Shown here piece after piece: positions 1 to 37,492 of a stretch of 51,880 nucleotides of DNA (position 1 is the stretch's first letter; the number at the start of each line of letters is the position of its first letter). A program made the position numbers and the translations under genes. The DNA comes from Chitinophagales bacterium (GTDB lineage Bacteria; Bacteroidota; Bacteroidia; Chitinophagales; Chitinophagaceae), in the NCBI GenBank assembly GCA_044448365.1, contig JBIOGV010000001.1, positions 1 through 51,880 of the forward strand. The letters run 5' to 3'. A model generated the notes under the pieces. The model saw only the letters and a program-made list of their open reading frames with translations, was not told the origin of the DNA and did not search any database.

Positions 1-369
1 AATAAAATTGATATTTCAGGAGAACGAATAGCAAAAGAAAAATTCAAAGAGACTTTGAACCTGTTGTTTATTTCAGCGATCAACCCAAAGTATATTGAAA
101 CTTTAAAAGAACGAATGGTTGATATGGTGCTGGAAGGTCATGTGCAAACGGAAAGTACGATTGTTACCAATGCGCGGCATTTTGATGCACTGCAACAATT
201 ACATTCATCTTTAATGGATGTTACAAAAGGTCTTGATGATAAACTGCCCGGTGATCTGTTAGCGCTTGATATTCGGTTGTGTCTTCAATATCTTGGAGAA
301 ATCACCGGAGAGATCACGAACAAAGATCAGCTGGATTATATTTTTTCAAAGTTCTGTATCGGAAAGTAA
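1..369 (+). CDS. mnmE: tRNA modification GTPase MnmE, C-terminal part (5' end lies outside the window)
   Basis: Frame 1 is open from nt 1. The translation ends ...LGEITGEITNKDQLDYIFSKFCIGK*, the canonical MnmE/TrmE C-terminal CIGK motif. Confidence 0.85.
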   Translation, partial: NKIDISGERIAKEKFKETLNLLFISAINPKYIETLKERMVDMVLEGHVQTESTIVTNARHFDALQQLHSSLMDVTKGLDDKLPGDLLALDIRLCLQYLGEITGEITNKDQLDYIFSKFCIGK

Positions 370-782
370 CTGCATCGCGTCAGATGCAGATTCTACGCAG
401 TTTATGCGGATTCCAAACAAGTTATACTTGCTTTTCTTTGTTTTTATTTGCCTTTAGTCGCCTTTTTTTTTAGGTAGGAAAGTGGCCATTACTTTAAAAC
501 TAATGGACCTTCCCATTGTAAAGAGGAGAGATTATAGTACACAATGATACGGTATGATACATAATGATACGATAATTATCGGTTGAAAAACAGAAATCAC
601 AGCCAAAATAAAAGTATATGAGTAGTAATATAAGAGTAACTAAAGTATGTGAGTATTGCAGCCAGAAATTTATAGCGAAAACCATTCAAACGCGATATTG
701 TTCGCATAGTTGTAATAATAAAGCCTATAAGGAAGGTAAACGCAAAGGAAAGATTGAATCAGTAATCAATAAAACTAATCCG
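352..782 (+). repeat. Copy 1 of a ~430-bp direct repeat (mnmE terminal codons + hairpin + palindrome + ATGATAC triplet + 5' part of the Zn-ribbon gene)
   Basis: Aligns colinearly with 12578-13005, roughly 80-85% identical by eye. Confidence 0.85.
370..389 (+). other. 7-bp stem hairpin (CTGCATC-N6-GATGCAG) immediately after the mnmE stop; candidate terminator stem or recombination core
   Basis: Perfect inverted repeat seen in the sequence with no clear U-tract. It is conserved with loop variation at 12596-12615 and 13159-13178. Confidence 0.4.
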
Positions 783-923
783 CTAAATCATCCAAAACTT
801 AATTCCTCATCAATTAGCTATGGCAGTCTGAATGAAAAAGAATTTCTCACTATAAATGATTGCAGCCAGCTTTTGAATATCACTACAGTAGCCTTAAGAA
901 GGTGGATTAAAGAATTTTTTTAG
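618..923 (+). CDS. Small zinc-ribbon (CxxC...CxxxC) plus C-terminal HTH (excisionase/MerR-like) DNA-binding protein
   Basis: ATG start. The N-terminus is CEYCSQKF...YCSHSCNNK. The C-terminus FLTINDCSQLLNITTVALRRWIKE resembles HTH_17/Xis-type helices. A paralogous truncated copy lies at 12843. Confidence 0.55.
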   Translation: MSSNIRVTKVCEYCSQKFIAKTIQTRYCSHSCNNKAYKEGKRKGKIESVINKTNPLNHPKLNSSSISYGSLNEKEFLTINDCSQLLNITTVALRRWIKEFF

Positions 924-1122
924 ATCAATTTAGAATTTAGACAGTTGAGTTAAGCAACTATTTTATATAAGCCGGCGTTTTATATAATGACTACAAAAGA
1001 TTGTACGCTGCTTTAAAGAGATATTCCCCCCAACTGAATCCTTCACATGAGTTATTAACACGTAGACGAGTAGACAACTAGGGCTAAGTTTTATTTATTC
1101 ATAATTCAAAATTCTCAAAACA

Positions 1123-1965
1123 ATGAAACACTATTACAAAGAAGCTACATTGCTCATTGCTATTGTTTTTATTTTGGGCGAATTAGGAATTGCTCAAAAT
1201 TTATCTTACTGCCCTTCAAAAGGGAACAGTACACTTCACGGCTATATCGCAAAAGTTTCCATAGAAGGCATAAATAATGCCAGTGGTAACAATAACGGAT
1301 ACCACGATTTTACGAGCCTTTCTGCTAAACTTCAAAAAGGAGCCGATTATACTATCCAATTGAGTCCAGGATTTATTAATATTCCGAGTGGGGGAATTTA
1401 TTTTGAATACTGGTCCGTTTATATTGATTTTAATCAGAATGGTATTTTCGAATCAAATGAAATGGTGACCCATGGCAATTCGGCGATAAAAATTAATAAA
1501 GGCTTTCTCATCCCTGCAACAGCTTTAACAGGCTCGACAAGAATGCGTATTCAAATGCAACCAGGCGTTGAGCAAACAAATCCTTGTGCTGTATTTGCGT
1601 TTGGAGAAGTAGAAGATTATTCCGTCGTGCTGGTCAATAGTATCAACAAAATTGAAACTGCTGAAAAACAAAATGCATCGATTAGAAATTCAAAAGAAAT
1701 TTCAGAAGAAGATGACAAGATTCGCCTATTCCCAAATCCGGCAAAAAATAGCCTTGCTGTCCAATTAAACATAAATTTCAATGCAAATAATAAAATTGAA
1801 GTATATAATAGCTTAGGCAAGCAGGTTCTATCTGTTCAAAGCATTGAATCCAGCAATGGAGGAACCATTGCGATCAACACAAGCACGCTGGCAAATGGAA
1901 TTTATTTTATGAATATTATGAACAATCAACAAATCGTCAGAAAGAGATTTGTCATTTCCCGGTAG
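1123..1965 (+). CDS. Secreted GEVED-domain protein with T9SS type A C-terminal sorting domain
   Basis: N-terminal signal peptide, a GEVEDY motif, and the C-terminal tail LFPNPAKNSLAV...GIYFMNI...RKRFVI typical of Por/T9SS sorting domains. Confidence 0.8.
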   Translation: MKHYYKEATLLIAIVFILGELGIAQNLSYCPSKGNSTLHGYIAKVSIEGINNASGNNNGYHDFTSLSAKLQKGADYTIQLSPGFINIPSGGIYFEYWSVYIDFNQNGIFESNEMVTHGNSAIKINKGFLIPATALTGSTRMRIQMQPGVEQTNPCAVFAFGEVEDYSVVLVNSINKIETAEKQNASIRNSKEISEEDDKIRLFPNPAKNSLAVQLNINFNANNKIEVYNSLGKQVLSVQSIESSNGGTIAINTSTLANGIYFMNIMNNQQIVRKRFVISR

Positions 1966-2213
1966 CCAAAAATCAAAAGCGACTGCCAATTATGATTAGC
2001 AGCTGCTTTCATCTTTAACGGAGCTGACAGGACAAATATCGAACCTTCTACTTGAAGACCTTCAAAAGTTGCATGAACCACGGTTATCGAAAATGATACT
2101 GCCTAATAAAAAAATGGATAGTTGATTTTATATCCTTAATGCGACTCTGTAATTTCGGTCGGTAACAAAAAGCTGAACAGCGAATTGCCATTAATGCTGC
2201 ATCCCTTTAATCC

Positions 2214-2429
2214 TTATGAGCAGCAAAAAGTTTCTATTTGCGCAGGCGGACATTTTACAGTACCGTAACTACAAAAAACACAACAATCTCCTTGTTTGGG
2301 TTTTAATCTTGTCTTACAATTTTTACATTCGTAAAAAAATTGACAGGCATTTGTCGGCATTGTCTCTTCTTCGCTGTGTCCGCAAAATGGACAGGTTATT
2401 ATTGATGTCGGTTCTAAGTTTTTGTTCAT
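2214..2429 (-). CDS. GDCCVxC domain-containing small Cys-rich protein
   Basis: Contains CPFCGH, CKNCK and GDCCVFCSYG motifs that match the named GDCCVxC (seleno)protein family. The ATG at 2429 is preferred over the TTG at 2432. Confidence 0.75.
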   Translation of the reverse strand: MNKNLEPTSIITCPFCGHSEEETMPTNACQFFYECKNCKTRLKPKQGDCCVFCSYGTVKCPPAQIETFCCS

Positions 2430-2668: not shown

Positions 2669-2732
2669 ATTTCATCTGGAAGTTTTTGATCACACGTAAA
2701 GAGTATGCACAAAGTACCCTCAATGACCCTGT

Positions 2733-4379: not shown

Positions 4380-4487
4380 GAAAAAACCGTGATAATACGA
4401 TTTGTAAAAGCACAAATTTGGGTTTGTGTAAACGGGGGCTGACGGAATCTGTGTTTCGACTTTTTTCAAGCCTGGTCATAACGCTAT

Positions 4488-4548
4488 ACAGCTTTTGTCC
4501 CGACTTGACATTTACCATTTAGCGAAAGAATAATTTTTTATCTTTAGT
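4488..4548 (+). repeat. Module P, copy 2
   Basis: Aligns with 2733-2795. Confidence 0.5.
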
Positions 4549-4812
4549 GTATGTCGTCAAAACAAATTGGACTTTTTGTTAGATACAGCTTTGTGATTAC
4601 AAGCGTAAATTTTAGGTGTATTTCATTCCCGACCAATCACAAAAGACTTAGTGTGTAACCCAAGGTTTTTTCGAGAGTTTACATTAATACTTTAATTCTG
4701 CCATTAATTTCTCTAAACACGGATAAGTACTCGATGAATACATTCTGTATCGTGGCTCCAGAAATGTGACTTGGAGGGAATGATGAAAGGGTGAGATCAC
4801 CGGAGAAATAAC
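4549..4812 (+). repeat. X-L-core-A composite repeat, copy 1 (core TTCTGTATCG at 4743-4752)
   Basis: About 265 bp colinear with 10893-11168, roughly 85-90% identical by eye. It contains a conserved 10-bp stem (TTTGTGATT...AATCACAAAA). Confidence 0.9.
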
Positions 4813-5250
4813 ATCACGAACACAAAGCCCTTCAGCTTTTCTTTCCGGGCTGGCGTTTATCTCATAGGCAATAACTCAGCCTGCCCGGTGTAATCATTGC
4901 AAGAAATCATTTTAGTAAAGTGATCCTGCTATTAGTTTCTAGTCAATGAAATAATTTTCATTGTCTTTTTTTGTCTCCCCTAAAACTTGCAAAGAGGCGT
5001 CCGAAAGACCTACCTTTAATTTCAAATGGAATAGGGTACCGGAAAAAATTTATTCATCAGCATTATCCTGTTACTGGCTTTGCTATTAATAGCTCTGGTG
5101 ATTTGGATTTATGCTACGAGAATAAAAAATATTGAAAAAGAACTTTAGGCCGGTTACCTTCATAGAAATTCCACCGGGATTTTCGGGAATTGTTTGAGGA
5201 GGAATGGTACCATAACCTGTTTTCTTTTTTTAATAAAAAATATTTTCCTG

Positions 5251-8200
5251 ATGAAAGGCGCATCTCGGTTTACTTCCTACAGCCATCTTGCCTTCCAGGT
5301 GGGATGCTTTATGTATTTTTTTTTCCTATCACCACTGGTTTCAAATGGCCAGCCCCAATCAGAAAAAGGGCTTCCATTTATAACAAATTATGCTGCTAAG
5401 ACTTTTAATGCACTTCCTCAAACCTGGAGCGTGCAGCAGGATGAAAATGGAATAATGTATTTCGGCGTTCAAAATTACATACTGGAATATGATGGTATAA
5501 GATGGCGAAAATTAACGTTTCAAAATAATTCAAGTACAAATATATGCCGGTCAATGACAATGGCTGAAAACGGAGTCATTTATTACGGTGGATTTGGTGA
5601 TTTAGGTTACTTGGGTAATGATAGCCTTGGACAAAAAAGAACTAATTCCCTTCTGCGCCTGGTTCCGCCAGAATACCGCAATTTTTTGGATGTATGGTCA
5701 GCCTATTCTACAGAGTCGGGAGTCTATTTTCAGTCCCGGGAATACATTATCCGGTATGATGATTCAAAGCATGAGCCTGGTGAAAAGAGAATGATGAAGG
5801 TTTGGATACCAAAAACCAAGTTCATGTACGCCTTTTATCTCGATGGGAATTATTTTGTTCATCAGCAGGGGTTGGGTCTTTTTAAAATGGTAAATGACTC
5901 ACTTGTTTTAATACCCGGCAGTGAATTTCTCGGAAAAGAAAGAATGCAGATTATGCTTCCCTACCCGTCAGCGACAGGGGAAAAACAATACCTCATAGGG
6001 CTGTTTTATAGTGGTCTGTATCTTTACGATGGAAAAACATTTCGACGGTTCATTACTCAGGCTGATCCGATCTTTAGATCGGGAATTAATTTGTACAAAG
6101 GCCTTCAGTTGAAGAACGGTTCTTATGTTCTTTCAACCACAGGAAAAGGCCTCGTTATTATAGATGCACAGGGTATCATCCAGCAAAAAATTAACAGGGA
6201 TGTAGGGCTGCAGGATGAAACCATTTACGCAACGTTTATAGATAAACGTGGGTCGCTTTGGTTAGGATTGGATAATGGAATTTCAAGGGTCGAAATAGCT
6301 TCGCCGGTCACAAAATTCGGATCGCAATCCGGAATAAATTCCGGAGTTCTTAGTATTAACAGGTTTGGGGGAGATCTTTATATTGGAATATCGAATGGGC
6401 TTTTAGTATTCAATAATAAAACAGCTCATTTTGAGCGGGTACCCGGTATGCTTGGGAACCAGGTATTTCAGATGTTACAGGTAGGAAATGAATTGATAAT
6501 ACCTGCTGATGGTCTGTTTGGAGTCAGGAATATGAAAGCCCATGCTATTCGTGCTTCTGTGAGCGCAGACCTCACATTAAACGGTGTATATCATTCCAAA
6601 AAATATCCTAATGTCCTGTTATGCGCTGGAAATTTCGGGGTCGCAGTTTTTGAAAAGAAGAGTGAGCCATCTTCATCCAATGGTTCAGGAACATGGCATT
6701 TCACAGGGTACATTCCGGGTATCAAAGACCAGTTATGGACGCTGGCTGAAAATTCAGATGGAACCATTTGGGCGGGAACCCAGGTTGGGCGCTCATACCT
6801 GATCAGGTTGGCATTTGATGCAAAGGATAGTATTGATTTGAAAAATACAAAATTTGAAATATACGGGCCCGGGAATGGTTATAAGAATGGCCTTGGCAAT
6901 GTCTTTTCCATAAAAGGATCAAATTATTTCCCCGGTGATTCCGCTCTATACACTTTCGACGATAAACAGAAAAAATTTAGAATTGACAGCACTTTTGGAA
7001 TTTTTAAGAAAGGTGGAGGCTTTACTGAATTTGACATGGATGAAGATGCCCGGGGCAGGGTTTGGATTCGTCTTGGCAAAGAGTTAAGGTTGGCGGTTCC
7101 CAGGCCAGAAGGAGGTTATTTCATCGATACAACGGAAATGCGTGAAATCAATGATTTTACTATTCAAAAAATTTATCCTGAAAAAACCGGAATTGTCTGG
7201 ATATGCACTACTGATGGCTTGATGCGATATGATGAAAAACTTAGAAAGGAGAATGATCCGTCCTTTAAAACTCTACTTCGTTTCGTTTCCGCCGGTAAGA
7301 GCGAACTGAACACGGCCATCAGCCAGGATGAGAAACTTGTCTCTGTTTCTTTTAAAAAGCGTACTCTTCGGTTTGAATATGCTGCACCTTTCTTTGAACA
7401 GGAAGAAAAAACACTATATCAAACCTGGTTAGAAGGATTTGAAAAAAACTGGTCGGATTTTGATTATAACTACTATAAGGAATACACAAATCTTCCTGCA
7501 GGTAAATACCATTTTCATGTGCGTGCAAAAAATGTTTATGAGAAATTAAGCGAAGAAGCTGTTTATTCTTTTTCGATACGACCACCCTGGTATGCAAGCG
7601 GGTGGGCATATTTATTATACATCCTGACTGCACTTGCAATTGTTTATACTATTATCCGCTGGAGAACCCGCCAATTACACGAAAAACATCGCGAACTTGA
7701 AAAAATTGTGGCAGAGCGTACCGTACAATTAAGTCTCCGCCTGGATGAACTCGCTGTGATAAACAGTGTGCAGGGTGGCCTGGTAAGAGAAATGGATATT
7801 CAGGGAATCTATGAACTGGTGGGAGAAAAGATCAGGGAAATTTTTCATGCCCAGATATTCGATATCGTAACCTACGATAGTAAGACCAATTTACTCGAGG
7901 ATCACTATTCTTATGAAAATGGTGACCGGACACTGGTAGGAAAATGGGAACCAAGCGGATTCAGGAAAATTGTAATAGATACCCAACAAGTATTATTGAT
8001 CAATAAAGATCTTGATAAAAGAAGCCAGGAAATAAACAACAAAGTGATCAGCGGAGAACAGCCAAAATCTGCCCTTTTTGTTCCTTTGATTTCAGGTGGT
8101 CATGTGACCGGTATGATCAGCCTGCAGGATCTTGACAGGGAAAATGCTTTTCCTGAATCATCCGTCAATTTACTTACTACGCTGGCAAACAGCATGAGTG

Positions 8201-10776
8201 TGGCTTTGGAAAGCGCCCGCCGGTTTGATGAAACCAAATTATTATTGACAGAAACCGCAAAAGGCAAGAAAAATGTTGAATTGCTGAGTGATATAGGAAA
8301 AAAAATAACTGCTTCCCTCGATTATGAAACGATTTTTTATGAACTATATGGACACATTAATCAATTGGTTGACGCAAGCATTTTTGGCGTAGGTATTTAT
8401 CATGCTGAGCGGCAGCAAATAGAATATAGTTTTGCAATAGAAAATGGAAGGAGGTATCAACCTTATACAAGGGATACTTCAGACAAGAACCAGTTACCTG
8501 TGTGGTGCATTGAAAACCGGATGCCAATATTATTAAATGATGTGCCTAATGAATATAGCCGTTATATAAACAGTTATGAGACTACAGAAAGACTTTTGGA
8601 AGATGGTTCAGTTTCACTACCTCCTTTATCAATTATATATATTCCATTGATTGTAAAAGATAAGGTTCTAGGGATTATTTCAATTCAGAGTTTCCGGAAG
8701 AATGCATACACCGAATATCATCTCAATCTTCTGCAAAACCTTGCTACATATACAAGCATAGCGCTGGATAATGCCAGTGCTTATCGCCAACTGAACAAAC
8801 GTGAACAGGAAATAGCGCAGCGAGCTACAGAGCTTTCTACGGTGAATACTATCAGCAAGGCCCTCGCCTCTCAATTAGATACCGATGTGTTGATAAAAAT
8901 GGTTGGCGACCATTTGAAAGATTTATTTAAAGCCAACCTTGTTTACCTCGCATTATTAAATCAAAAAACCAAAATCATTCATTTCCTTTATCAGTATGGT
9001 GATAAAATGCGACCCATAAAATTAGGAGAAGGGCTTACTTCTAAAATTATATTGAATGGAGAGCCTCTTCTTATTAATAAAGACTTACCCAAGCATAGGG
9101 CACAGTTGGGAGTTGAAAGGATCGGACTAGCAGCCACTTCCTACCTGGGTGTTCCAATTCCGGTAGGTGGTGAAAATATTGGTGTACTGAGTGTACAAAG
9201 CACGGAGAAGGAGAACCGGTTTAACGAAAATGACCTGCGGCTCTTATCTACCATTGCATCATCAGTCGGAGTTGCTTTGAGGAATGCAACACTTTTTGAA
9301 GATGTGAAGCTCGCTAAAATGGAAGCCGAAGCAGCCAGCAAAGCAGCAGAAAAAGCCAATGAAGCAAAAAGTGCTTTTCTTTCTACTGTAAGCCATGAAC
9401 TTAGAACTCCGCTTACTTCTGTGCTTGGGTTTGCCAAAATCATTAAGAAAAGACTGGAAGAAAAACTATTTCCACTTATTGATCACTCGGATCCAAAGAC
9501 AGAAAAAACCATTCAGCAGGTATCTGAAAATCTCAATGTAGTAGTTTCGGAAGGTGAACGCCTGACGCACCTTATCAATGATGTGCTGGACCTTGCCAAG
9601 ATAGAAGCCGGTAAAATGGAATGGAACATGGAACCGATTCCTATGCCTGAAATCGTCGAAAGGGCAATTGCTGCTACTTCTTCTCTCTTTGAACAAAAGC
9701 GTCTTACACTGAAAAGGGAAATCGAAAATGACCTGCCTGTGATTACCGGCGACCGTGATAAACTGATCCAGGTAGTAGTAAATCTTTTATCAAACGCTGT
9801 GAAATTTACTGACTCAGGATCCATTATCTGCCGTGTTTTTCAAAAAGACAATGAAGTTATTGTTGGTATTATGGATACAGGCATTGGCATAGCCCCCAAG
9901 GATCATGCGACTGTATTCGAACAATTTAAACAAGTGGGTGATACATTAATCGACAAACCAAAAGGGACCGGTTTAGGCTTACCGATTTGCAAAGAGATTG
10001 TTGAGCACCAAGGTGGTCACATTTGGCTGGAAAGTGAATTGGGCAAAGGGAGTACTTTCTTTTTTGCATTGCCAGTGAACAAGACAGAGGTCATCAAGCC
10101 CATAAATCTGGATGAACTGGTGAAACAGTTAAAAGAGCAAATGGCCCGGTCTCAATTGAATATGAAAGAACAGGGAATCACCATTCTCGTTGTGGATGAT
10201 GAGGAATCTATTCGTTCATTGCTTCGTCAGGAACTTAGTGATGCGGGATATAATGTTGAAGAAGCAGGCAATGGTAAAGAAGCGTTAGGCAGAATCCGGG
10301 CAAATAAACCTGATCTGATTATCCTTGATGTGATGATGCCTGAGATGAATGGTTTTGAAGTTGCCAGCATTTTGAAAAACGATCCTCAAACGATGGATAT
10401 CCCAATCATTATTTTATCTATTGTGCAGGATAAGGCAAGGGGCTTTCGCATAGGGGTTGACCGCTATCTTACAAAACCTATTGATAGTGCCGAACTATTC
10501 GCTGAAGTGGGCACTTTGCTTGAACAAGGCAAGTCTAAGAAGAAGGTAATGATCGTGGATGAGGACAGTGCTGCCGTTAGATCACTGACTGAAGTGTTGG
10601 AAACAAAGGGGTATAATGTGGTGGAATCGGACGGAAAAGAACTGATGAAGAAGGCTATTTCAACACTTCCTGATATCATCATTCTTAATTCTCTGTTTTC
10701 CGAAAAGCAGCAGATAGTACAGTCTCTCCGTTTCGAAAAGGGGTTGGAAAATGTATTGTTTTTGATTTATCAATAA
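5251..10776 (+). CDS. Hybrid sensor histidine kinase: Reg_prop beta-propeller repeats, Y_Y_Y, TM, multiple GAF, HisKA, HATPase_c, receiver, plus truncated pseudo-receiver
   Basis: The ATG at 5251 gives a signal-like N-terminus (the track ORF starts at the TTG at 5194). Motifs include YQTWLEGFEKNWS...YHFHVRA (Y_Y_Y), SHELRTPL (H-box), GTGLGLPICK (G2) and DLIILDVMMP (receiver Asp). Confidence 0.85.
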   Translation: MKGASRFTSYSHLAFQVGCFMYFFFLSPLVSNGQPQSEKGLPFITNYAAKTFNALPQTWSVQQDENGIMYFGVQNYILEYDGIRWRKLTFQNNSSTNICRSMTMAENGVIYYGGFGDLGYLGNDSLGQKRTNSLLRLVPPEYRNFLDVWSAYSTESGVYFQSREYIIRYDDSKHEPGEKRMMKVWIPKTKFMYAFYLDGNYFVHQQGLGLFKMVNDSLVLIPGSEFLGKERMQIMLPYPSATGEKQYLIGLFYSGLYLYDGKTFRRFITQADPIFRSGINLYKGLQLKNGSYVLSTTGKGLVIIDAQGIIQQKINRDVGLQDETIYATFIDKRGSLWLGLDNGISRVEIASPVTKFGSQSGINSGVLSINRFGGDLYIGISNGLLVFNNKTAHFERVPGMLGNQVFQMLQVGNELIIPADGLFGVRNMKAHAIRASVSADLTLNGVYHSKKYPNVLLCAGNFGVAVFEKKSEPSSSNGSGTWHFTGYIPGIKDQLWTLAENSDGTIWAGTQVGRSYLIRLAFDAKDSIDLKNTKFEIYGPGNGYKNGLGNVFSIKGSNYFPGDSALYTFDDKQKKFRIDSTFGIFKKGGGFTEFDMDEDARGRVWIRLGKELRLAVPRPEGGYFIDTTEMREINDFTIQKIYPEKTGIVWICTTDGLMRYDEKLRKENDPSFKTLLRFVSAGKSELNTAISQDEKLVSVSFKKRTLRFEYAAPFFEQEEKTLYQTWLEGFEKNWSDFDYNYYKEYTNLPAGKYHFHVRAKNVYEKLSEEAVYSFSIRPPWYASGWAYLLYILTALAIVYTIIRWRTRQLHEKHRELEKIVAERTVQLSLRLDELAVINSVQGGLVREMDIQGIYELVGEKIREIFHAQIFDIVTYDSKTNLLEDHYSYENGDRTLVGKWEPSGFRKIVIDTQQVLLINKDLDKRSQEINNKVISGEQPKSALFVPLISGGHVTGMISLQDLDRENAFPESSVNLLTTLANSMSVALESARRFDETKLLLTETAKGKKNVELLSDIGKKITASLDYETIFYELYGHINQLVDASIFGVGIYHAERQQIEYSFAIENGRRYQPYTRDTSDKNQLPVWCIENRMPILLNDVPNEYSRYINSYETTERLLEDGSVSLPPLSIIYIPLIVKDKVLGIISIQSFRKNAYTEYHLNLLQNLATYTSIALDNASAYRQLNKREQEIAQRATELSTVNTISKALASQLDTDVLIKMVGDHLKDLFKANLVYLALLNQKTKIIHFLYQYGDKMRPIKLGEGLTSKIILNGEPLLINKDLPKHRAQLGVERIGLAATSYLGVPIPVGGENIGVLSVQSTEKENRFNENDLRLLSTIASSVGVALRNATLFEDVKLAKMEAEAASKAAEKANEAKSAFLSTVSHELRTPLTSVLGFAKIIKKRLEEKLFPLIDHSDPKTEKTIQQVSENLNVVVSEGERLTHLINDVLDLAKIEAGKMEWNMEPIPMPEIVERAIAATSSLFEQKRLTLKREIENDLPVITGDRDKLIQVVVNLLSNAVKFTDSGSIICRVFQKDNEVIVGIMDTGIGIAPKDHATVFEQFKQVGDTLIDKPKGTGLGLPICKEIVEHQGGHIWLESELGKGSTFFFALPVNKTEVIKPINLDELVKQLKEQMARSQLNMKEQGITILVVDDEESIRSLLRQELSDAGYNVEEAGNGKEALGRIRANKPDLIILDVMMPEMNGFEVASILKNDPQTMDIPIIILSIVQDKARGFRIGVDRYLTKPIDSAELFAEVGTLLEQGKSKKKVMIVDEDSAAVRSLTEVLETKGYNVVESDGKELMKKAISTLPDIIILNSLFSEKQQIVQSLRFEKGLENVLFLIYQ

Positions 10777-10892
10777 ACTTGAAAATGGGAGATAAAATAT
10801 GAATGAAAATAATTTTTAAATAGTTGAATGGGTTAATCTAAACATCAGAATTTGAAAAAATAAAATGGAACAAAAATTATTAATTGTTGATT

Positions 10893-11168
10893 GTATGTGG
10901 TCAAAACAAATTGGACTTTTTGTTAGAGACAGTTTTGTGATTGCAAGTGTAAATTTTAGGTGCATTTCATTCCCGACTAATCACAAAAGACTTAGTGTGT
11001 GACCTAAGGATTTTTCGAGAGTGCACATTAATACTTTAATTCTGCCATTAATTTTGCTAAAACACCGATAAATACTCGATCAATACATTCTGTATCGCAG
11101 CTCCAGAAATGTAGCGTTGACGGAATGATGAGGGGGTGAGATCATCGGGGAGAAAAGGAGAAATTAAT
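10893..11168 (+). repeat. X-L-core-A composite repeat, copy 2 (core at 11088-11097; ends with GGAGAAATTAAT)
   Basis: Colinear with 4549-4812. Confidence 0.9.
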
Positions 11169-12377: not shown

Positions 12378-12531
12378 TTATAAGTTATCTCACTATGGTG
12401 GCGCAATGGTAACCTTCGTTATCTGAAACAAAGTTTATTGGAAAGATTGAAGGGCTTTTTGATAATACCACGACAAAAAAATCTGTCAGCCGGATGTAAT
12501 TGAATCAAGAAATTATTTTAGTACAGTAATT

Positions 12532-13005
12532 CTGCCATTAATTTTTCTAAAACACTTAGAAATAGTCGAAAAGTACATTTTGTATCGGAAAGTAACTGCA
12601 TCACGTCAGATGCAGATTCTACGCAGTTTCTGCATGTTCTCTGCAAGTTGTATTTGCTTTTCTTTGTTTTTATTTGCCTTTAGTAGCATTTTTTTGGGTA
12701 GAAAAGTGGTCATTAGTTTAAAACTAATGGCTACTTTCCCATCGTGAAGAGGAGAGATTATAGCACACAATGATAGGGTATGATACATAATGATACAATA
12801 GTTATCAGTTGAAAATCCAATTTAGAACCAAAAAACCACGCTATGAGTAGTAATTTAAGAGTAACTAAAATATGTGAGTACTGCAGCCAGGAATTTATTG
12901 CAAAAACTATTCAATCGAAATATTGTTCGCATAGCTGCAATAACAAAACCTATAAGGAAGCCAAGCGCAAAGAAAAGGTTGAATCAGTAGTCAGTAAAAC
13001 TAATC
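12532..13005 (+). repeat. L module fused through the core (TTTTGTATCGG, 12578-12588) to copy 2 of the ~430-bp mnmE-trailer repeat
   Basis: 12578-13005 aligns with 352-782. 12532-12577 aligns with the L modules at 4698, 11042, 18572 and 24008. Confidence 0.85.
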
Positions 13006-13025
13006 AGGCCAATCGTCAGCAATAA
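12843..13025 (+). pseudogene. Truncated paralogue of the Zn-ribbon/HTH gene (60 codons, HTH part missing)
   Basis: MSSNLRVTKICEYCSQEFIAKTIQSKYCSHSCNNKTYKEAKRK aligns with the 618-923 product, then diverges and stops. Confidence 0.6.
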
Positions 13026-13087
13026 GTCCGCCAAGGCCGATGCAATCATTATAAGCCATTATTTATTCATCTATTGGTACATTATTT

Positions 13088-13190
13088 TTGCTATTAATTT
13101 CGCTAAAACCCTGAGAAATACCCGATGAGTACATTCTTTATCCTTTATCAGAAAGTAACTGCATCGCAAACAATGCAGATTCTATGCAGT
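13088..13190 (+). repeat. L-core-trailer repeat, short copy (internal CTTTATC duplication, stop at 13156-13158, hairpin at 13159-13178)
   Basis: Aligns with 12532-12640 and with 352-400. Confidence 0.75.
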
Positions 13191-13420
13191 TGTTAGGGTG
13201 GCTGTTTATAATAATAAAATCTTTTGATGAACACCAACAACGGCGTAAGTCAACAAAACTTGCAGTAAAATAAATCTGTGTGATTTTATGGTTTTTTGTT
13301 CCGGCACCCTACTTTTGTCGCAACTGTCCGTGTCAGTTGCTATCATGGAGTTAGCAGCTCATAAAAAGATATTTCGCTAAAATTTTGTTTCCTGGTGAAT
13401 GTACTTTTATGTTCTAAAAA

Positions 13421-17416: not shown

Positions 17417-17582
17417 AGGATTTAATTTTTCTTTGCAATTTGGCTTTATATCCGGGTTGACGTTATTGTATTTGGTTAAAAGAAAATCATCCTTTTGTTA
17501 GATGCATACATGTTACTAAAAATCTGTCTTTACCTTTATTTGCTGATGTTTGCTTTTGAAGCCATAAATCGCACTACTATTC

Positions 17583-17772
17583 TTGTTACTAATTTCGCCA
17601 GAACCCTTATTAATAGCGGGTCGGTAAATTCTGTATCGGAAAATGATTTAATGATGAGTACCAGAGTGATTTTATCATGTGGGAGAGATTCATGAATAAA
17701 GCGACGAGTCCCTTTTAGCATTTTTAAGACCATTGCCTCATGCAGTTAGGAGGAGACTCGTCGGGGAAGAAA
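17583..17772 (+). repeat. L-core-B repeat (core at 17629-17639, reads TTC TGT ATC GGA AAA TGA)
   Basis: Aligns with 18572-18763 and 24008-24194. Its 3' end lies 3 nt from the stop of the convergent gene at 17776. Confidence 0.85.
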
Positions 17773-17775
17773 TCC

Positions 17776-18345: not shown

Positions 18346-18571
18346 GTTTAAAAAATGTTTTAGTTAAGAAATATGTGTGATCGAAAATAGAATCTGGATT
18401 AAAAGAAATGTTTTCAATTAGAAATTTCAGGGTAGTAAGAGCGACTAAAGTAAGAAAGATTATCCATTCCCCGTTGTGATTAGTGTTCTATAAAATAAAA
18501 ATGATCGAATGCTGTCAGGACACTGTATCGTCTGTGGCTACGGATCAATCCCCATATTATTTTTGACAGTA

Positions 18572-18763
18572 ATCCTGCTATTAATTTCTCCAAAACACTG
18601 ATAAATACTCGATCAGTACATTCTGTATCGGAAAATGATTTAATGATGAACAACAGAGTGATTTTATCACGCGGGAGAGATGCATGAATAAAGCGAGGAG
18701 CCTCTCTTAGTTTTCTTGATATCACTTTTAACGCAGTTAGGAGGAGACCCGTCGTGGAAGAAA
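18572..18763 (+). repeat. L-core-B repeat (core at 18621-18631)
   Basis: Aligns with 17583-17772. Its 3' end is flush with the stop codon of the convergent kinase gene (18764-18766). Confidence 0.85.
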
Positions 18764-21700: not shown

Positions 21701-22333
21701 ACCTTCTGTGCCAAACCAAAAGTTTCCGGCCTTATCTTCCAAGATGCTGTTTATCTTTTTTATAATTCGAAACCTTGAGACAGTAGCGCCGTCAAATATA
21801 TTTGCCCCGTTATCTGTACCAAACCATAAATTTCCTTTATTGTCTTCCGTAATGCTGTTGATACCATTACTGCTTAAGCCCTGCGAGGTTGTATAGTTAG
21901 TAAAGAATTGTCCATCGTACTTACTTACCCCGCCCGTGTAAGTACCAAACCACAGGTTGCCTTTTTTATCAGCATAGGAACATGAAATTGCGTCTAAGAC
22001 AAGACCCTGTTCAGTTGTGTAATTTTGCATGATCGATGAAAATTCGGCCTTCACTTTTTCAATAGGGCTAAAATGGATCGTTTCGGATCGCGATTGGTAA
22101 GGAATTGTATAGTCAACAGGCTTGTGCGGGATTGAAATTCTTTCCGGCACCGGTGTATTCTCAACAAGAATCGTTTTTGGTTGCAGACTATCGGGTAAGT
22201 TAGCCAGTAGTGTTACTTGAGGACTTACAGAACTATATTGTTTGGATTCGTTGACAACAGTTTTATTTTCCTTTTTATCGTTACAGGAAAAGAGGATTAG
22301 TACAGCAAGGAAAAGGATTTTAGAATTTGGCAT
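18764..22333 (-). CDS. Sensor histidine kinase with Reg_prop beta-propeller repeats, Y_Y_Y, TM, HisKA-like and HATPase_c domains (no receiver)
   Basis: Lipoprotein-like signal (LFSC). Many GNLWFGT...YDG repeats, YQYKMEGYDKNWS, the H-box GIAHEIQNPLNFV and GTGLGLSLSYDIV. Confidence 0.85.
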   Translation of the reverse strand: MPNSKILFLAVLILFSCNDKKENKTVVNESKQYSSVSPQVTLLANLPDSLQPKTILVENTPVPERISIPHKPVDYTIPYQSRSETIHFSPIEKVKAEFSSIMQNYTTEQGLVLDAISCSYADKKGNLWFGTYTGGVSKYDGQFFTNYTTSQGLSSNGINSITEDNKGNLWFGTDNGANIFDGATVSRFRIIKKINSILEDKAGNFWFGTEGYGLYKYAGDSISTYSKSDGLPGNNVYEIKEDKKGIIWIGTENGLCKYDGKAFTNIALSNQEVHTICTDNSGNTWAGTKMGYIKYNGADIITYPADEQIVPFVYEDHFGNICLSSGRGEILYYNGKTFSHINNSNGVIMGEIHSICEDKDGNLWFSSAANGIFSYSGPSFQRLTYNRIRSIFEDKKGDLWFAGYGGLMTRFDGEYFTNYKLNISFWSLFQDKTGNIWMGCEYDGLIKFDGKYFTFYTDLNGLPDNSVKNILQDSEGNLWIGTRNGLSKFDGKTFTTYTIKQGLAGDYISAIAEDKPGDFWIGTDRGLSHFDGKSFTNYRLSHAEGGNYIRSLIKDNDGNIWMGTQGGGLNRYDGKSVLTYTTGQGLPDNVVTQVALTHEGNIVIGTNNGVAILTGYKPVTTTSTNNSNNKADENNYPPQNSLSNADLQNYTPVFEKYNSKTGYPVKDVNRGQHAIFLDSKGMLWIATGSEKSGLMRFDYTSLNKNNTPPELNILAIKVDNEAICWNDLVNTKNNTYKSKLKSDSAVTPASVTEEVTTFGKPLNVAQREDMRAKYKGIEFDAISRFYPVPQNLILPYSHNNITIEFAAIEPAKPSLVQYQYKMEGYDKNWSTPANITSAAFGNIYEGTYQFDVRALSPSGVWSDPIKYSFVVLPPWYRTWWAYLVYVLLFLFALRVFSKWREKNLRNEKEKLGKIVDERTAELKQSFEDLKSTQSQLIQSEKMASLGELTAGIAHEIQNPLNFVNNFSEVNKELLVEMKDEIKKGNMNVVDAIVNDVIDNEEKINHHGKRADAIVKGMLQHSRSGTGQKELVNINAIADECLRLSYHGLRAKDKSFQANLKTDFDESINKFPLMQQEIVRVFINLFNNAFYAVNEKHKQNISGYEPTVLVSTKKVADKVLISVRDNGPGIPQKVLDKIFQPFFTTKPTGQGTGLGLSLSYDIVKAHGGEIKVNTREEEFTEFVVHLPVSV

Positions 22334-23698: not shown

Positions 23699-24007
23699 AT
23701 TTAAGAATTCATTGAGCAATCCAAACGCAATTTTAATTATTCCGGGTGTTAATTTAATACTCTCACGCCGTATCCATATTCTAAAACTAAGTGGTGAGGT
23801 GTTCATCTGAAAGCAATCTTCTGTAAAATCAAATACTGCTCCATTAGAATATCTTTAATTATAAACAGATTTGTAAAATCTGTTAAGATTTTATGACTGC
23901 AAGATATTTACCCGGCTAACAAATTAAATCACAAATTTTTTTTGTCTTTTGATATTAACGCTATCAATCACCCCTCATTCTTCGAATGTAGTCTTATCGT
24001 ACATTAG

Positions 24008-24194
24008 TTGGCCATTAATTTCTCTAAAATCCTGATAAATACCAGGGAAATACTTTTTGTACCGGGAAGTGAATTAATAATGAACAACAGAGTGATTGTA
24101 TCATATGGAGCTGTTTGAATAAAGCGATGAGCTTCTTTAGTTTTTCTAAGAAGACTTCTCATTCCGTTGGAGGAGACTCGTTGGAGAAGAAATA
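24008..24194 (+). repeat. L-core-B repeat, more diverged (core reads TTT TGT ACC GGG AAG TGA at 24055-24072)
   Basis: Aligns with 17583-17772 and 18572-18763. Confidence 0.8.
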
Positions 24195-26831: not shown

Positions 26832-27212
26832 ATGAGAAAGAGTTTTATCAAACAAATTTCAGGCATTGCAGTTCTTGGAATTTTCTTATTGTCATTGGGA
26901 TCATTCATCAATAAAAATGACGGTACTAAAACCGTAACCGGGGAAATCCTGGATATGAAATGTTATATGGCTTCGGGCGCTCATGGTGCAGATCATAAAG
27001 AATGCGCTGCTACATGCATCAATGGCGGTTCTCCGATGGGCATCCTTTGTGATGATGGTAAAGTTTACCTGTTGATCAAAGACGATAAAAAAGAGGATGC
27101 TTATAATGATGCCAAAAAGTATGCAGGCGAAAACGTTATATTGACCGGCACTGAATCAGTAAAAGGCGGCGTACAGGCATTGATTGTAGCCGAAGTTAAA
27201 ATGAAAAAATAA
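26832..27212 (+). CDS. Hypothetical exported Cys-containing protein
   Basis: ATG start, signal/TM segment, 126 aa. No family recognised. Confidence 0.5.
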   Translation: MRKSFIKQISGIAVLGIFLLSLGSFINKNDGTKTVTGEILDMKCYMASGAHGADHKECAATCINGGSPMGILCDDGKVYLLIKDDKKEDAYNDAKKYAGENVILTGTESVKGGVQALIVAEVKMKK

Positions 27213-27312
27213 ATGCCTTCTTCGCGACGAATCTCCTTCGAATTTTTAGAAATTCTTTTTTAAGAAATTAAGAGGTAGCCGGGACCGGGAAAAATTAATA
27301 AGATCAACAATC

Positions 27313-27420
27313 TTATTATTAATTTCTCTGGAATACTTATAAATGCCCGATGAGAGATTCTGTATCGCCGCTCCCAAAATGTGAGCTAAAAAAATAATTA
27401 CGAGACGACGTCACCTGGAA
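27313..27420 (+). repeat. L-core-A' repeat (core at 27358-27367, reads TTC TGT ATC GCC GCT CCC AAA ATG TGA)
   Basis: Aligns with 4698-4770 and 11042-11115. The 3' part is diverged. Confidence 0.7.
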
Positions 27421-27670
27421 ATATTTTTTTTGCCGATGTACTATGCATTAAATAAAATGATTTTTAAAATTTAATTAAAGGATCAACAGGTTGTGGAGTG
27501 GATATTGGAAATAATATGCCGGGATAAACCGTAATCAGTAGCTTGTCAAAAGCAGTTGTTGCAAAAAATAACAGGTAGCTGTTTTTCATGCCAGCCCCGA
27601 ACACCTAATTTGTTTACTCAAAACCAGCTTAGTAAGTTTACAGAGAGCAATAACATATTAAAATCATGCC

Positions 27671-31992: not shown

Positions 31993-33006
<1,014 letters not shown>

Positions 33007-33030
33007 TTGTTCGGACGAATGAACTAAATA

Positions 33031-33609
33031 ATGAAAAATGTAATCATCCTCGGTGCCAGTGGTAATATTGCAACGCATGTTATTGATATTTTAGTAAAAA
33101 AAGATGACATCAACCTGACCTTGTTTTTGCGAAACAAAAATAGGCTAAGAAATAAGGATGTTTCAAGGTGTCATATCATTGAAGGGGATGTTTTAAATAT
33201 CAGTCAACTAAAAGAAGCAATAAAAGGACAGGATATAGTGTATGCAAATCTTTCAGGTGACCTGGAGGCGATGGCAAAAAACATTGTGAGAGCAATGAGA
33301 GAAACAGGAGTTAAGAAACTCATCTTCATCAGCTCGATAGGTATCTACGACGTTCCTTTAAGACCCGTTTTAAAAACTTATCGAAAAGCTGCAGATGTAA
33401 TTGAAGCATCCAACCTCGAATACACTATCCTGAGACCAACCTGGTTTACGAATGCGGATGAAGTGGATTATGAGACAACCAGGAAAGGCGAAGCGGAAAA
33501 AGGATCGGTAATTTCTCAGAAAAGCCTCGCAACTTTGATTACGAAAACTATTGAATCTCCTGAAAAATACTTTCGTGAAAATCTCGGGATTAACAAACCA
33601 AACTCTTAA
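33031..33609 (+). CDS. NAD(P)H-binding (NmrA/atypical SDR-like) oxidoreductase
   Basis: N-terminal IILGASGNIA Rossmann motif, ~190 aa. Confidence 0.75.
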   Translation: MKNVIILGASGNIATHVIDILVKKDDINLTLFLRNKNRLRNKDVSRCHIIEGDVLNISQLKEAIKGQDIVYANLSGDLEAMAKNIVRAMRETGVKKLIFISSIGIYDVPLRPVLKTYRKAADVIEASNLEYTILRPTWFTNADEVDYETTRKGEAEKGSVISQKSLATLITKTIESPEKYFRENLGINKPNS

Positions 33610-33614
33610 TAGTT

Positions 33615-34025
33615 ATGAATACTTCAGAAAATCAATACCAGGTTTTTGAAAAAGGTGAAAAAGCTCCGGCTGATTATTTCACCGGCGCAGCATGGGTAAA
33701 AATGCTGGTGCCCAATGATCCTATTCTCAATTGCCAAATAGCGAATGTTGTATTTGAACCCGCTGCAAGGAACAACTGGCATACCCATCCGGGCGGACAA
33801 ATTTTATTGGTAACAGATGGCATTGGGTATTACCAGGAAAAAGGTAAGCCGATACAGTTACTTCATAAAGGTGATGTAGTTAAAATTTCTCCTGGTGTAG
33901 TACATTGGCATGGCGCTTCACCTGGTGGCGAGTTTACTCACATCGCAATTAATACGAACACGCAATCAGGATTAGTGGTATGGTTACAAAGAGTGACAGG
34001 CGAAGAATACAGCAGCTTTAAATAA
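33615..34025 (+). CDS. Cupin domain protein
   Basis: NNWHTHPGGQILLVTDG...VHWHGA are cupin_2 His motifs. Confidence 0.8.
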   Translation: MNTSENQYQVFEKGEKAPADYFTGAAWVKMLVPNDPILNCQIANVVFEPAARNNWHTHPGGQILLVTDGIGYYQEKGKPIQLLHKGDVVKISPGVVHWHGASPGGEFTHIAINTNTQSGLVVWLQRVTGEEYSSFK

Positions 34026-34247
34026 AAGTTTACAAAAGCCTTTACTTCACTACCGGCACAGATCGCAGGCTTGCCTGGTTGTTATTCGCCCATGCGAATT
34101 TTAATAGAAGATCGGTTTCAGTTCGTTCATACATGAAATGATGATTGCACTATTTTTGAAACTCTCATTTTTAGCTGCCACATCATGCAGTATTTGCATT
34201 TCAGTTACCTGTAAATCATAAATATTTTGCTTTTAGTTGGGCGGATA

Positions 34248-34332
34248 TATGAATAAAGCGACAGATTTCTTTTAATTTTCTTAAAATGAATTTTAATACG
34301 GTCAGGAGGAGACTTCGTCGGCGAAGAAAAAG
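34248..34332 (+). repeat. B-module-only repeat (TGAATAAAGCGAC...GGAGGAGACTTCGTCGGCGAAGAAA)
   Basis: Aligns with the 3' halves of 17583-17772, 18572-18763 and 24008-24194. Confidence 0.7.
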
Positions 34333-35834: not shown

Positions 35835-35898
35835 AAATAGATATCCGCGAGTAGTTTGTTATATATTCTGTCATATTTGTTTTTGCCACGAAACAGGG

Positions 35899-35990
35899 TT
35901 GAACAATGCTTTCCCGACGAATCCATTTTAGTTTTCCTAAAATAATGTTTCATGAGGTCAGAAGAAAACTCGTTGGTGAAGAAAAATATA
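35899..35990 (+). repeat. B-module-only repeat, diverged
   Basis: CCGACGAATCCATTTTAGTTTTCCTAAAA...GGTCAGAAGAAAACTCGTTGGTGAAGAAA aligns with the other B modules. Confidence 0.6.
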
Positions 35991-36160
35991 TCTCGCAATT
36001 ATAAGAACGACCTATCCTGATCATCCACAAAATAAATTTTATCTTTATTCGGCAGCCGTCTCCGGGACTGATCGATAGATGAATCCTGGTAGCTACCGGG
36101 ATCGGACACCGCAAGAACCGGACATAAGCAGCCATTTTAACTTTGTATTTATATAGCTCA

Positions 36161-36673
36161 ATGAAAATAGTTCCGGCGCAGGAAATAAAGCAATTAGAAA
36201 TTATTGAGAGACTTGCTTGGGAAATTATACCAGAATTCTATGCTCCTTATGTTCCCCTTGATCATTGTATTTTCTTTGTGGAGAAATTTCAAACAGTAAC
36301 AGCAATACAAAAACAAATAGTGGAAGGATTTGAATACTACTTACTAAATTACAAGGAAAACATTGCCGGCTACCTGGGGATTCACGCCACAAATGAAATC
36401 CTGCTGCTAAGCAAACTATATTTATTAAAGGAATTCCGGGGAAAAGGGATTGGCGACAAAGTAATGTCATTTGTATATAAACGTGCACATGAGTTAAAAT
36501 CTTCAACAATTGAACTCATTGTAAACAGGCAAAATAAAGGGGCAATAGACTTTTATGAAAAAAGAGGATTTACAATCGTTCAACCCATAGTCAGCAAATT
36601 TGAAAATGGTCATTCAACAGAAGAATTCAAAATGGAAAAGAACATCGATCGGGAAGTGCACAGTGGCAGCTGA
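36161..36673 (+). CDS. GNAT family N-acetyltransferase
   Basis: The RGKGIG...motif A region and size fit GNAT. The ATG at 36161 is preferred over the TTG at 36143. Confidence 0.8.
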   Translation: MKIVPAQEIKQLEIIERLAWEIIPEFYAPYVPLDHCIFFVEKFQTVTAIQKQIVEGFEYYLLNYKENIAGYLGIHATNEILLLSKLYLLKEFRGKGIGDKVMSFVYKRAHELKSSTIELIVNRQNKGAIDFYEKRGFTIVQPIVSKFENGHSTEEFKMEKNIDREVHSGS

Positions 36674-36744
36674 CATTGGATGTCGCTACCGGGTACGACT
36701 CAAAGCGTCGTTATTTATAAGAACAGAACCCTTTAAATAATAAT

Positions 36745-37359
36745 ATGGCAGAAACAAACCCCAACTCACGATTAGAAACTTTTTGCGATGGAGTATTTGC
36801 AATAGCATTAACCTTATTGATTATTGATATCAAAATCCCTGCATCAGTCAGTATCAATACCAATGCTGATTTCTGGCTTGCGCTTAGGCATATTGCTCCG
36901 CCTATATTTGCATTTGTTTTAAGTTTCGCTATCATCCTCATAACCTGGGTTAACCACCACAATGCATTGAAACTGGTGAATAAATCATCTGCCTCATTTA
37001 TCTATGCAAATGGTTTTTTGCTGCTTACTGTTGCTTTTTTGCCATTCCCGACCTCCTTGCTGGGGGAATTTCTTTTAACTGATCATGCCGCCCCCGCTGT
37101 AGTTCTTTATGAATCTACTATGGCATTTCAGGCAATCAGCTGGATTTTGATATCCAGAACAGCAGTTAAAAATCAGTTAGCTAAAAATGAAAAATCAAAC
37201 CTGGCAACTCGAGAAAACGGTAAATACGGATACTTTGCATTCGCTCTTTATTCTCTTTGTACCATCACGGCATTTTGGTTTCCTCTTACTATTGCCATTG
37301 TTACGACCTTAATCTGGATTTTTTGGCTGATATGGGGAATTAATCTTAAGCATGAATAA
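36745..37359 (+). CDS. TMEM175/DUF1211 family potassium channel-like membrane protein
   Basis: N-terminal RLETFCDGVFAIALTLLIID matches the RxxxFSD-type signature helix. Six TM-like segments. Confidence 0.8.
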   Translation: MAETNPNSRLETFCDGVFAIALTLLIIDIKIPASVSINTNADFWLALRHIAPPIFAFVLSFAIILITWVNHHNALKLVNKSSASFIYANGFLLLTVAFLPFPTSLLGEFLLTDHAAPAVVLYESTMAFQAISWILISRTAVKNQLAKNEKSNLATRENGKYGYFAFALYSLCTITAFWFPLTIAIVTTLIWIFWLIWGINLKHE

Positions 37360-37403
37360 ATGAATTGACCAAATTGAACTTTCTTTTCGAAACAAACAGG
37401 TTA

Positions 37404-37492
37404 CTGAAAATAGATGTTTTTCGCCGTCTGGTCCTCTTAGTTTTCTTAGATAATTTCTCATGCAGTCAAGAGGAAACTCGCCCTGGAAGAGT
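37404..37492 (+). repeat. B-module-only repeat, most diverged copy
   Basis: GGTCCTCTTAGTTTTCTTAGAT...CATGCAGTCAAGAGGAAACTCGCCCTGGAAGA aligns with the other B modules. Confidence 0.55.

Follow-up and report, generated by a model that had tools for sequence, protein, structure and literature searches.

What kind of process leaves a whole series of repeats that carry the last codons of a housekeeping gene and divide the DNA behind this gene into small blocks? This question is raised by a contig of an uncultured Chitinophagales bacterium from soil, belonging to the family Chitinophagaceae (JBIOGV010000001.1), which was analysed over its whole length of 51.9 kb and is called the window in the following. 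The start of the contig falls inside mnmE, the last 18 bp of which (also known as the end of trmE) are well known as the target of SGI1-type resistance islands in Gammaproteobacteria. The initial annotation of the window had proposed a stack of attachment (att) site relics at the 3' end of mnmE, or an integron-like cassette array. We consider it probable that site-specific recombination at the final 10-18 bp of mnmE gave rise to the repeats as att junctions, and that the array arose by tandem accretion and decay.

The modules of the repeats were defined by repeat finding, self-BLAST and nhmmer profiles, and their distribution was read within the one contig of the source genome. Nine junctions lie on the strand of mnmE, at positions 2.6-27.4 kb of the window. 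In each of them, a conserved left module (L) is followed by the core, a copy of the mnmE end that comprises 10-18 nt and starts with TTCTGTATCG, and the core in turn by a right module, of which there are three kinds (A, B and C). The full 18 bp of the mnmE end (352-369) are found again at 12578-12595, and the other 8 sites, likewise on the + strand, carry core copies of 10-18 nt. Allowing at most one mismatch, TTCTGTATCGG occurs in 8 copies in the window, again all on the + strand, compared to a chance expectation of 0.61, while the core copies at 13134 and 24055 comprise two mismatches and were picked up by the repeat and profile searches. The nhmmer search with the L profile resulted in 8 full copies, all on the + strand (4651-4752, 10994-11098, 12485-12588, 13044-13142, 17533-17639, 18523-18631, 23960-24065 and 27270-27368), and in one core-less partial copy at 4889-4940. 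Module A follows the cores at 2597, 4743, 11088 and 27358, and module B those at 17629, 18621 and 24055. For module C, the stretches 352-780 and 12578-13005 showed 85% identity, and the first 49 nt of C are repeated with 84% identity (354-402 compared to 13143-13191).

Altogether, the core, L and the three right modules described in the initial annotation were recovered by motif count, repeat finding, self-BLAST and profiles. The same holds true for the position of all copies between genes and, according to a window-wide profile search, for their absence past 37.5 kb. Other details had to be adjusted. At least 13 copies had been counted as built on the mnmE end, but since fragments consisting of B alone contain no mnmE codons, this applies only to the nine junctions and mnmE itself. 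All nine junctions lie on the + strand as stated, whereas one B fragment (27218-27278) is inverted, so that the statement is not strictly true for every copy. The length of L is not about 55 nt but approximately 110-220 nt, with at least three alternative upstream extensions. A conserved L stands at 8 cores in full, whereas the copy at 2597 has a degenerate L that is about 24 nt shorter. The features from mnmE to the last junction are as follows:

1-369, + strand: 3' end of mnmE, last 122 codons, ending in FCIGK and stop (translation, homologues with PF12631, MnmE alignment).
352-369, + strand: mnmE-proximal core, attL-like, last 18 bp of mnmE (TTCTGTATCGGAAAGTAA); it resembles the att sites of SGI1 and MGIVchHai6 and is duplicated behind the integrase in 20 Bacteroidota loci.
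370-923, + strand: C module, the canonical left arm of the integrase-bearing element, with trailer hairpin, three ATGATAC repeats and truncated HTH_17 gene; an integrase is absent.
2545-2668, + strand: junction 1, with degenerate L, core 2597-2606 and A at 2607-2668.
4526-4940, + strand: junction 2, with long L (extension type 1), core 4743-4752 and A to 4814.
4862-4940, + strand: core-less partial L with extension type 2, about 55 nt beyond the A of junction 2.
10869-11157, + strand: junction 3, with long L (87% identical to 4526-4806), core 11088-11097 and A.
12485-13017, + strand: junction 4, with L, 18-bp core 12578-12595 (TTTTGTATCGGAAAGTAA) and C arm with a shorter HTH_17 fragment at 12843-13007.
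13044-13191, + strand: junction 5, with L, core containing a 7-nt tandem duplication and the first 49 nt of C.
17533-17774, + strand: junction 6, with L, core 17629 (FCIGK, TGA stop) and B ending at the stop of the convergent gene 17776-18345.
18523-18764, + strand: junction 7, with L, core 18621 and B ending at the stop of the convergent histidine kinase gene 18764-22333.
23960-24194, + strand: junction 8, with L, decayed core 24055 (TTTTGTACCGGGAAGTGA) and B.
27270-27426, + strand: junction 9, the last with L, with core 27358 and diverged A.

The anatomy of the junctions points to recombination at the core. Homology between the junction types switches exactly at TTCTGTATCG, where one L is joined to three unrelated right modules; the core of mnmE itself is flanked on the left by coding sequence and not by L. 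Modules B (starting with GGAAAATGA) and C (starting with GGAAAGTAA) both complete F-C-I-G-K-stop, while A reads FCI(A/V)APEM-stop and does not restore the MnmE end. Since C and B supply G-K-stop, their insertion beside mnmE would keep the FCIGK end, whereas that of A would not. As noticed in the initial annotation, A echoes an upstream part of mnmE: it is colinear with the stretch of the gene between about 111 and 48 nt before the stop codon ends (ALDIR...LGEITGEI), with local alignments up to 7.9 standard deviations above shuffles. Module A is a captured and decayed copy of this part of mnmE and may stem from an aberrant excision capturing approximately 100 nt of the gene. Among the paralogous junctions of the window, identities of 65-88% were determined. 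In an alignment of 12 non-redundant junctions, the conserved columns of L+A are clustered in blocks, with 47 runs compared to 74.4 ± 5.9 in shuffles. The blocks are ATTAATTTC, AAAACAC, GTACATTCTGTATCG, GCTCCAGAAATGTG and GTGAGATCACC, and such a block-wise conservation is as expected for binding sites.

Several smaller observations were made on the same modules. The core of junction 5 contains a perfect 7-nt tandem duplication (CTTTATC CTTTATC, 13136-13149), the length of which fits the overlap of a tyrosine recombinase and which may mark CTGTATC as the crossover segment. In the C arm, three ATGATAC direct repeats are found at about 555-585 and 12781-12811, and a motif AATGAT(G/A) occurs in A (GGAATGATGA) and B (AATGATTTAATGATGA) and, inverted, in one L extension (GTAATCATTGC); both are candidate arm-type binding sites. 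In the long L extension of junctions 2 and 3 (4526-4690 and 10869-11035), the two 9-bp halves of an inverted repeat, TTTGTGATT ... AATCACAAA, enclose a loop of about 38 nt, and other L extensions read GGCAATAACTCAGCC...GTAATCATTGCAAGAAA or, in the related contigs L006 and L013, GCGAATTTGCAGTATATAGG.... A direct repeat of 72 nt with 80% identity (2723-2794 and 4478-4548) contains TTGACA...TATCTTTAG and is a candidate promoter. One copy precedes the S41 peptidase gene by 100 nt, and the other is found directly to the left of junction 2.

The origin of the arms can be traced by means of related contigs in which the recombinase is still present. In four of these (L017, L018, L103 and L104), TonB/ExbD genes are followed by mnmE, the core with a C-like trailer, an HTH_17 gene and a tyrosine integrase of 382-405 aa with the domains Phage_int_SAM_5 and Phage_integrase. 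The same gene order was found in L102, where the last gene is cut by the contig end and was assigned by its position. The right end of the element lies beyond the 10 kb read in L017 and L104, and in L102 and L103 the contig stops shortly after the integrase gene. A search for recombinases beside similar sites, as suggested in the initial annotation, hence leads to a tyrosine integrase behind mnmE and core. The full-length relatives of the protein encoded at 618-923 in the window are 'excisionase family' HTH_17 proteins of about 123 aa.

Furthermore, 80 loci with homologues of this integrase (L022-L101) were taken from species-representative genomes. They belong to Chitinophagaceae, Flavobacterium, Chryseobacterium, Epilithonimonas, Pedobacter and Dyadobacter, plus some metagenome-assembled genomes of Pyrinomonadales (Acidobacteriota). 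In 63 of the 80 loci, mnmE lies upstream on the same strand, which indicates that the mnmE end is a general integration hotspot in Bacteroidota. These 63 loci are spread over Chitinophagaceae, Flavobacterium, Chryseobacterium, Pedobacter and Dyadobacter and include a few of the Pyrinomonadales genomes. Many of the mnmE-linked loci carry the HTH_17 gene approximately 250 nt after mnmE, and a second copy of the 18-bp mnmE end was found 5-13 kb downstream in 20 integrase loci. Left of this second core, the Chitinophagaceae loci L055 and L059 show CACTAATTTCTCT..AAAC with the spacing to the core that is also found in L, and the L profile (nhmmer) matches L059. Based on this common motif and spacing, L can be assigned to the right arm of the element (P arm, attR side) and C to its canonical left arm.

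Two further observations on related loci concern accretion and decay. In L032, from Chitinophaga polysaccharea, a second HTH_17 gene follows immediately after the attR-side core, which represents a tandem accretion in an isolate. In L004, L006 and L010, an N-terminal integrase pseudogene runs straight into an L+A junction (tblastn). It covers the integrase residues 25-182 with 54-65% identity (in L010 at 1901-2374 on the minus strand), and these contigs contain an internally deleted element, the deletion being caught in progress.

The course of events that we infer for the array would be as follows. An element family of Bacteroidota would insert at the mnmE end by lambda-type integration, giving the canonical order of mnmE, core, a trailer of about 250 nt, HTH_17 excisionase-like gene, tyrosine integrase, cargo, right arm and second core. 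In such an element, L would represent the right arm (P), the core the region identical to mnmE, and A, B and C alternative left arms (P'). Later units would repeatedly have integrated at a core already flanked by an earlier unit, and each internal boundary would thereby have been turned into an attP-like L-core-P' junction. Subsequent deletions would have stripped the integrase, the excisionase gene and most of the backbone. The residue would be nine integrase-less units of 0.56-6.3 kb that are comparable to cis-mobilizable elements (CIMEs), and these may be mobile if an integrase is provided from elsewhere. Junction 4 fits this scheme as a putative attP-like junction between two tandem units, since the stretch 352-780 is duplicated at 12578-13005 with L before it.

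The content of the window was examined by Pfam scans of the open reading frames. The nine units between the junctions contain neither recombinase nor transfer genes; they carry up to 4 genes, some of them on the opposite strand. Their cargo comprises an S41 peptidase, two large sensor kinases, beta-propellers, an ABC transporter, a prolyl oligopeptidase and MgtC. The initial description of the cargo as mostly exported or envelope proteins is only loosely true, and in the domain scans the cargo appeared miscellaneous. A sorting domain of the type IX secretion system is encoded in the window, and the MnmE homologues are labelled Chitinophagaceae or Sphingobacteriales, which identifies the organism as a member of Bacteroidota. 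Directly behind mnmE, the open reading frame 618-923 encodes a C-terminally truncated HTH_17 protein of 101 aa compared to about 123 aa in full length, and a second, shorter fragment lies at 12843-13007. The full-length homologues score 28.5 bits compared to the TIGR01764 cut-off of 28.8.

A comparison with L011, a repeat-free relative with an MnmE of 66% identity, gives an estimate for the size of the insertion. In L011, genes for an aldo-keto reductase (65-76% amino acid identity) and a cupin protein (50%) lie 1.3-3 kb downstream of mnmE, while the same genes are about 32 kb away from mnmE in the window. This suggests that roughly 30 kb were inserted between them. The corresponding feature of the window is:

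32008-34025, + strand: aldo-keto reductase, NAD-binding and cupin genes, candidate ancestral neighbours of mnmE.

Many of the closest MnmE database entries are fragments of 99-211 aa, which were considered as partial duplicates of the gene. This was rejected, since mnmE is split by frameshifts in L011, L012, L014 and L016, which look like sequencing or assembly errors.

Related arrays occur in metagenomes. A scan for the L pattern in 185,579 species genomes found none, and the same scan of metagenomes resulted in ten stretches from soil or rhizosphere. Arrays of L+A and L+FCIGK-stop junctions in the same orientation, with one or two genes in between, were found in L006 and L007 (4 copies each) and in L001, L009 and L010 (2 copies each); their cargo is unrelated and contains no recombinases. 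The proposed search for the modules in relatives was also successful at mnmE itself: L-core copies lie downstream of mnmE and on its strand in L003 (2.5 kb), L013 (8.3 kb) and L016 (5.1 kb). The mnmE loci of the more distant relatives L011, L012, L014 and L015 showed no L, A or B. In L003, the sole cargo gene of a one-unit island behind mnmE (731-2707) has 73% nucleotide identity to the kinase half of the 1189-aa sensor kinase located between junctions 7 and 8 (18764-22333); the left arm is formed by the first 50 nt of C in L003 and by B in the window.

A number of findings weigh against an origin of the array by accretion and decay. Neither an integrase nor a fragment of one was found in the 51.9-kb window by the Pfam scans or by tblastn with a related integrase. 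The initial annotation had assumed a recombinase that is lost or encoded elsewhere, which agrees with this result and with the two truncated copies of the HTH_17 gene of the element that were kept. These backbone remnants are limited to the two C-type units. Neither int nor xis has left a trace in units of the A and B type, and this would be odd if each unit had decayed separately from a full-size element. In the mnmE-adjacent sequences read, the A arm was never found beside mnmE, where its insertion would turn the protein end into FCIAAPEM-stop. The 3' part of B occurs without L or core, once inverted, and the model gives no account of it. Finally, the strain comparisons indicate an exchange of modules, with breakpoints at the outer edges of the junctions and not at the core. 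The identity of L006 and L007 (99% over 4.1 kb) breaks off 15 nt past the stop codon of a DUF2911 gene, where the junction has its left edge, and that of L013 and L006 (93%) continues through the gene and the entire junction up to about 155 nt right of the core. Since these breakpoints lie off the core, homologous or illegitimate recombination presumably shapes the arrays as well.

The fragments of B concerned are the following:

27218-27278, - strand: inverted B 3' fragment abutting the stop of the gene 26832-27212 (nhmmer E=0.0024; alignment).
34190-34331, + strand: B fragment without L or core (E=3.9e-33, but the fragment is one of the four seeds of the B profile; self-match).
35899-35985, + strand: B 3' fragment without L or core (E=6.8e-11).
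37432-37490, + strand: B 3' fragment without L or core (E=5.9e-9).

The 3' end of B (GGAGGAGACTCGTCGNGGAAGAAAT) lies within 0-3 nt of the stops of three different convergent genes (17742-17775, 18733-18766 and 27211-27242). One of these contacts involves the inverted copy, and the 3' part of B also stands alone at 34.3, 35.9 and 37.4 kb. A duplicated block of gene plus B was considered here and rejected, since the two genes ending in MKK-stop before the 3' part of B are not homologous.

A different explanation would be an active cassette platform that shares the logic of an integron but is made of other parts. The integrase-less units, each composed of an A or B arm, 1-4 genes and L, could be moved by a mnmE-targeting integrase whose gene lies elsewhere in the genome or on a visiting element, being excised as circles and taken up either by the mnmE core or by junctions already present. 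The arms would then be conserved by selection because they are recombination sites. The nine junctions within 27 kb, separating units of 0.56-6.3 kb without mobility genes, are in line with such an active platform, as are units of 1-2 kb with unrelated cargo in at least four distinct metagenome arrays (L001/L002, L006/L010, L007 and L009). The L+A junctions are 75-93% conserved across genomes while the flanking cargo is unrelated, and the conservation of L+A in blocks points in the same direction. Moreover, one unit of L+A and a 152-aa gene is shared by L016 and L006 behind different, unrelated left neighbours, and an imperfect inverted repeat around an 11-nt centre in L+A, ACATTCTG ... CAGAAATGT, can be inferred from the alignment. 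However, neither circular forms nor empty sites were observed, the breakpoints between strains do not coincide with the core, the paralogous junctions are fairly diverged, and an A arm fails to restore the MnmE C-terminus. In addition, simple decay also predicts integrase-less units, and the integrase pseudogene beside L demonstrates that decay occurs. We therefore regard the active platform as possible but rather unlikely. A related idea, which we likewise regard as rather unlikely, is that an uncultured clade of soil Chitinophagaceae uses the mnmE stop codon as an entry point for the capture of cassettes with lambda-type att arms instead of attC hairpins. Such cassettes of 1-6 kb, without an integrase of their own and with conserved arms at both ends (A or B as P' arm, L as P arm), would be excised and inserted by a mnmE-targeting tyrosine integrase encoded elsewhere.

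Two explanations without a mnmE-targeting element were considered. In a classical integron, or a cluster of attC sites lacking integron integrases (CALIN), the repeats would be attC sites that are folded single-stranded and recombined by IntI, and the co-oriented, intergenic copies separating short gene blocks resemble this situation. The folding of single-stranded L+A, in contrast, amounted to -9.0 kcal/mol compared to -9.1 kcal/mol for shuffles (z=0.05), so that no excess stability was found and an attC-type folding is refuted. Upon reading the junction sequences, neither R''/R' boxes nor an overall dyad symmetry were evident. The type of integrase disagrees as well, since the associated enzyme scores 59 bits with the integron-integrase model TIGR02249 compared to a cut-off of 265. 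With an array that begins at the stop codon of a housekeeping gene instead of an attI/intI platform, and with up to 4 genes per unit, some on the opposite strand, an integron is hardly conceivable, and the term 'integron-like' used in the initial annotation is acceptable as an analogy only. The second explanation, a dispersed repeat of the repetitive extragenic palindrome (REP) or miniature inverted-repeat transposable element (MITE) kind, or a shared regulatory leader or small RNA with an incidental resemblance to mnmE, would account for the fact that most copies lie upstream of + strand genes and that an A extension of about 100 nt downstream is conserved in several metagenome copies. Contrary to this, three junctions face convergent or upstream-reversed genes, and no RNA signal was obtained: the RNA fold of L+A plus extension resulted in z=0.11, the consensus fold of seven B 3' parts in -3.4 kcal/mol with an unfavourable covariation term, and Rfam showed nothing relevant (window at the gathering threshold, 7 loci at the E-value threshold). 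This explanation is very improbable, given that integrase-bearing elements possess an attR-side arm homologous to L, that both the core and A can be shown to derive from mnmE, and that the nine junctions are confined to the 27.4 kb of the 51.9-kb contig nearest to mnmE. A small conserved minus-strand peptide in L and B (DTECTDRVFISVLEKL or IQNVLIEYLSVF) was also considered and rejected, as its frames are broken across the copies and no frame on either strand stays open in all of them.

Accretion followed by decay is thus the preferred explanation. In this sense the array, which is real and not a product of chance, is a case of tandem att-site accretion at the 3' end of mnmE, a known kind of process, and the initial annotation was essentially right: a mnmE-targeting integrase family exists, and L matches its attR-side arm. 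The array is notable for the phylum in which it occurs, for the breadth of the associated integrase family and for the unusually long integrase-less stack. Full-text literature searches found mnmE/trmE-end integration described only for Gammaproteobacteria, and the loci reported here extend the use of the same 18-bp landing pad to a widespread tyrosine-integrase family in Bacteroidota, across phyla from SGI1. Some of the mnmE-targeting elements carry defence systems. In L017, HamA and a helicase (16515-20098) form a Hachiman-like cargo, and L104 contains SMODS, ThiF and JAB genes (7845-10657), resembling a cyclic-oligonucleotide-based antiphage signalling system (CBASS). Together with the sister arrays, the nine junctions without recombinase represent a testable case for how accretion, decay and a possible mobilisation by an integrase from elsewhere could make a single att site cassette-like and hypervariable. 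If the capture of cassettes were true, gene capture of the integron-like kind would have been invented independently.

Among known systems, the array would be a Bacteroidota counterpart to the trmE islands of the SGI1 type and to integrase-less CIME arrays. For MGIVchHai6, the sites attL (TTCTGTATTGGGAAGTAA) and attR (TTCTGTATTGGCAAGTAA) have been described (PMC4958241), and tandem arrays are known for SGI1 (PMC5704250). These elements share the target with the window, i.e. the last 18 bp of trmE/mnmE (TTCTGTATTGGGAAGTAA and TTCTGTATTGGCAAGTAA compared to TTCTGTATCGGAAAGTAA), and the analogy to SGI1 drawn in the initial annotation is apt in that the target is the same kind of sequence. As in SGI1 and MGIVchHai6, the loci related to the window carry a tyrosine integrase and a small excisionase-type gene beside the gene-proximal att site. 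The sequence comparison with these islands covered the 18-bp target. The differences concern the phylum, here Bacteroidota (Chitinophagaceae), and the content: no SGI1 backbone genes were noted in general Pfam scans of the open reading frames of the window. Furthermore, the window comprises nine small heterogeneous units without integrase, while the arrays of SGI1 consist of copies of one 40-kb island, and three alternative left arms are found here, one of them derived from a captured piece of mnmE.

For integrative and conjugative elements (ICEs) and integrative and mobilizable elements (IMEs), a scenario of accretion and CIME formation has been described (PMC5704250). Like the CIMEs known from ICESt1/ICESt3 of Streptococcus thermophilus, the units of the window are flanked by att sites and contain no integration or transfer genes. 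While the known cases comprise 2-3 recognisably decayed ICEs or IMEs, 9 junctions are present here, most units show no backbone remnant, and the architecture of small units recurs in several genomes. With integron arrays and CALINs, the window has in common a co-oriented, conserved recombination site between the blocks, a mostly co-oriented cargo, the absence of a recombinase and a cargo that varies among relatives. In contrast to these, which are built on attC hairpins and IntI, neither of which was found here, the array consists of lambda-type linear arm-core-arm sites, is anchored at a housekeeping gene and is composed of multi-gene units.

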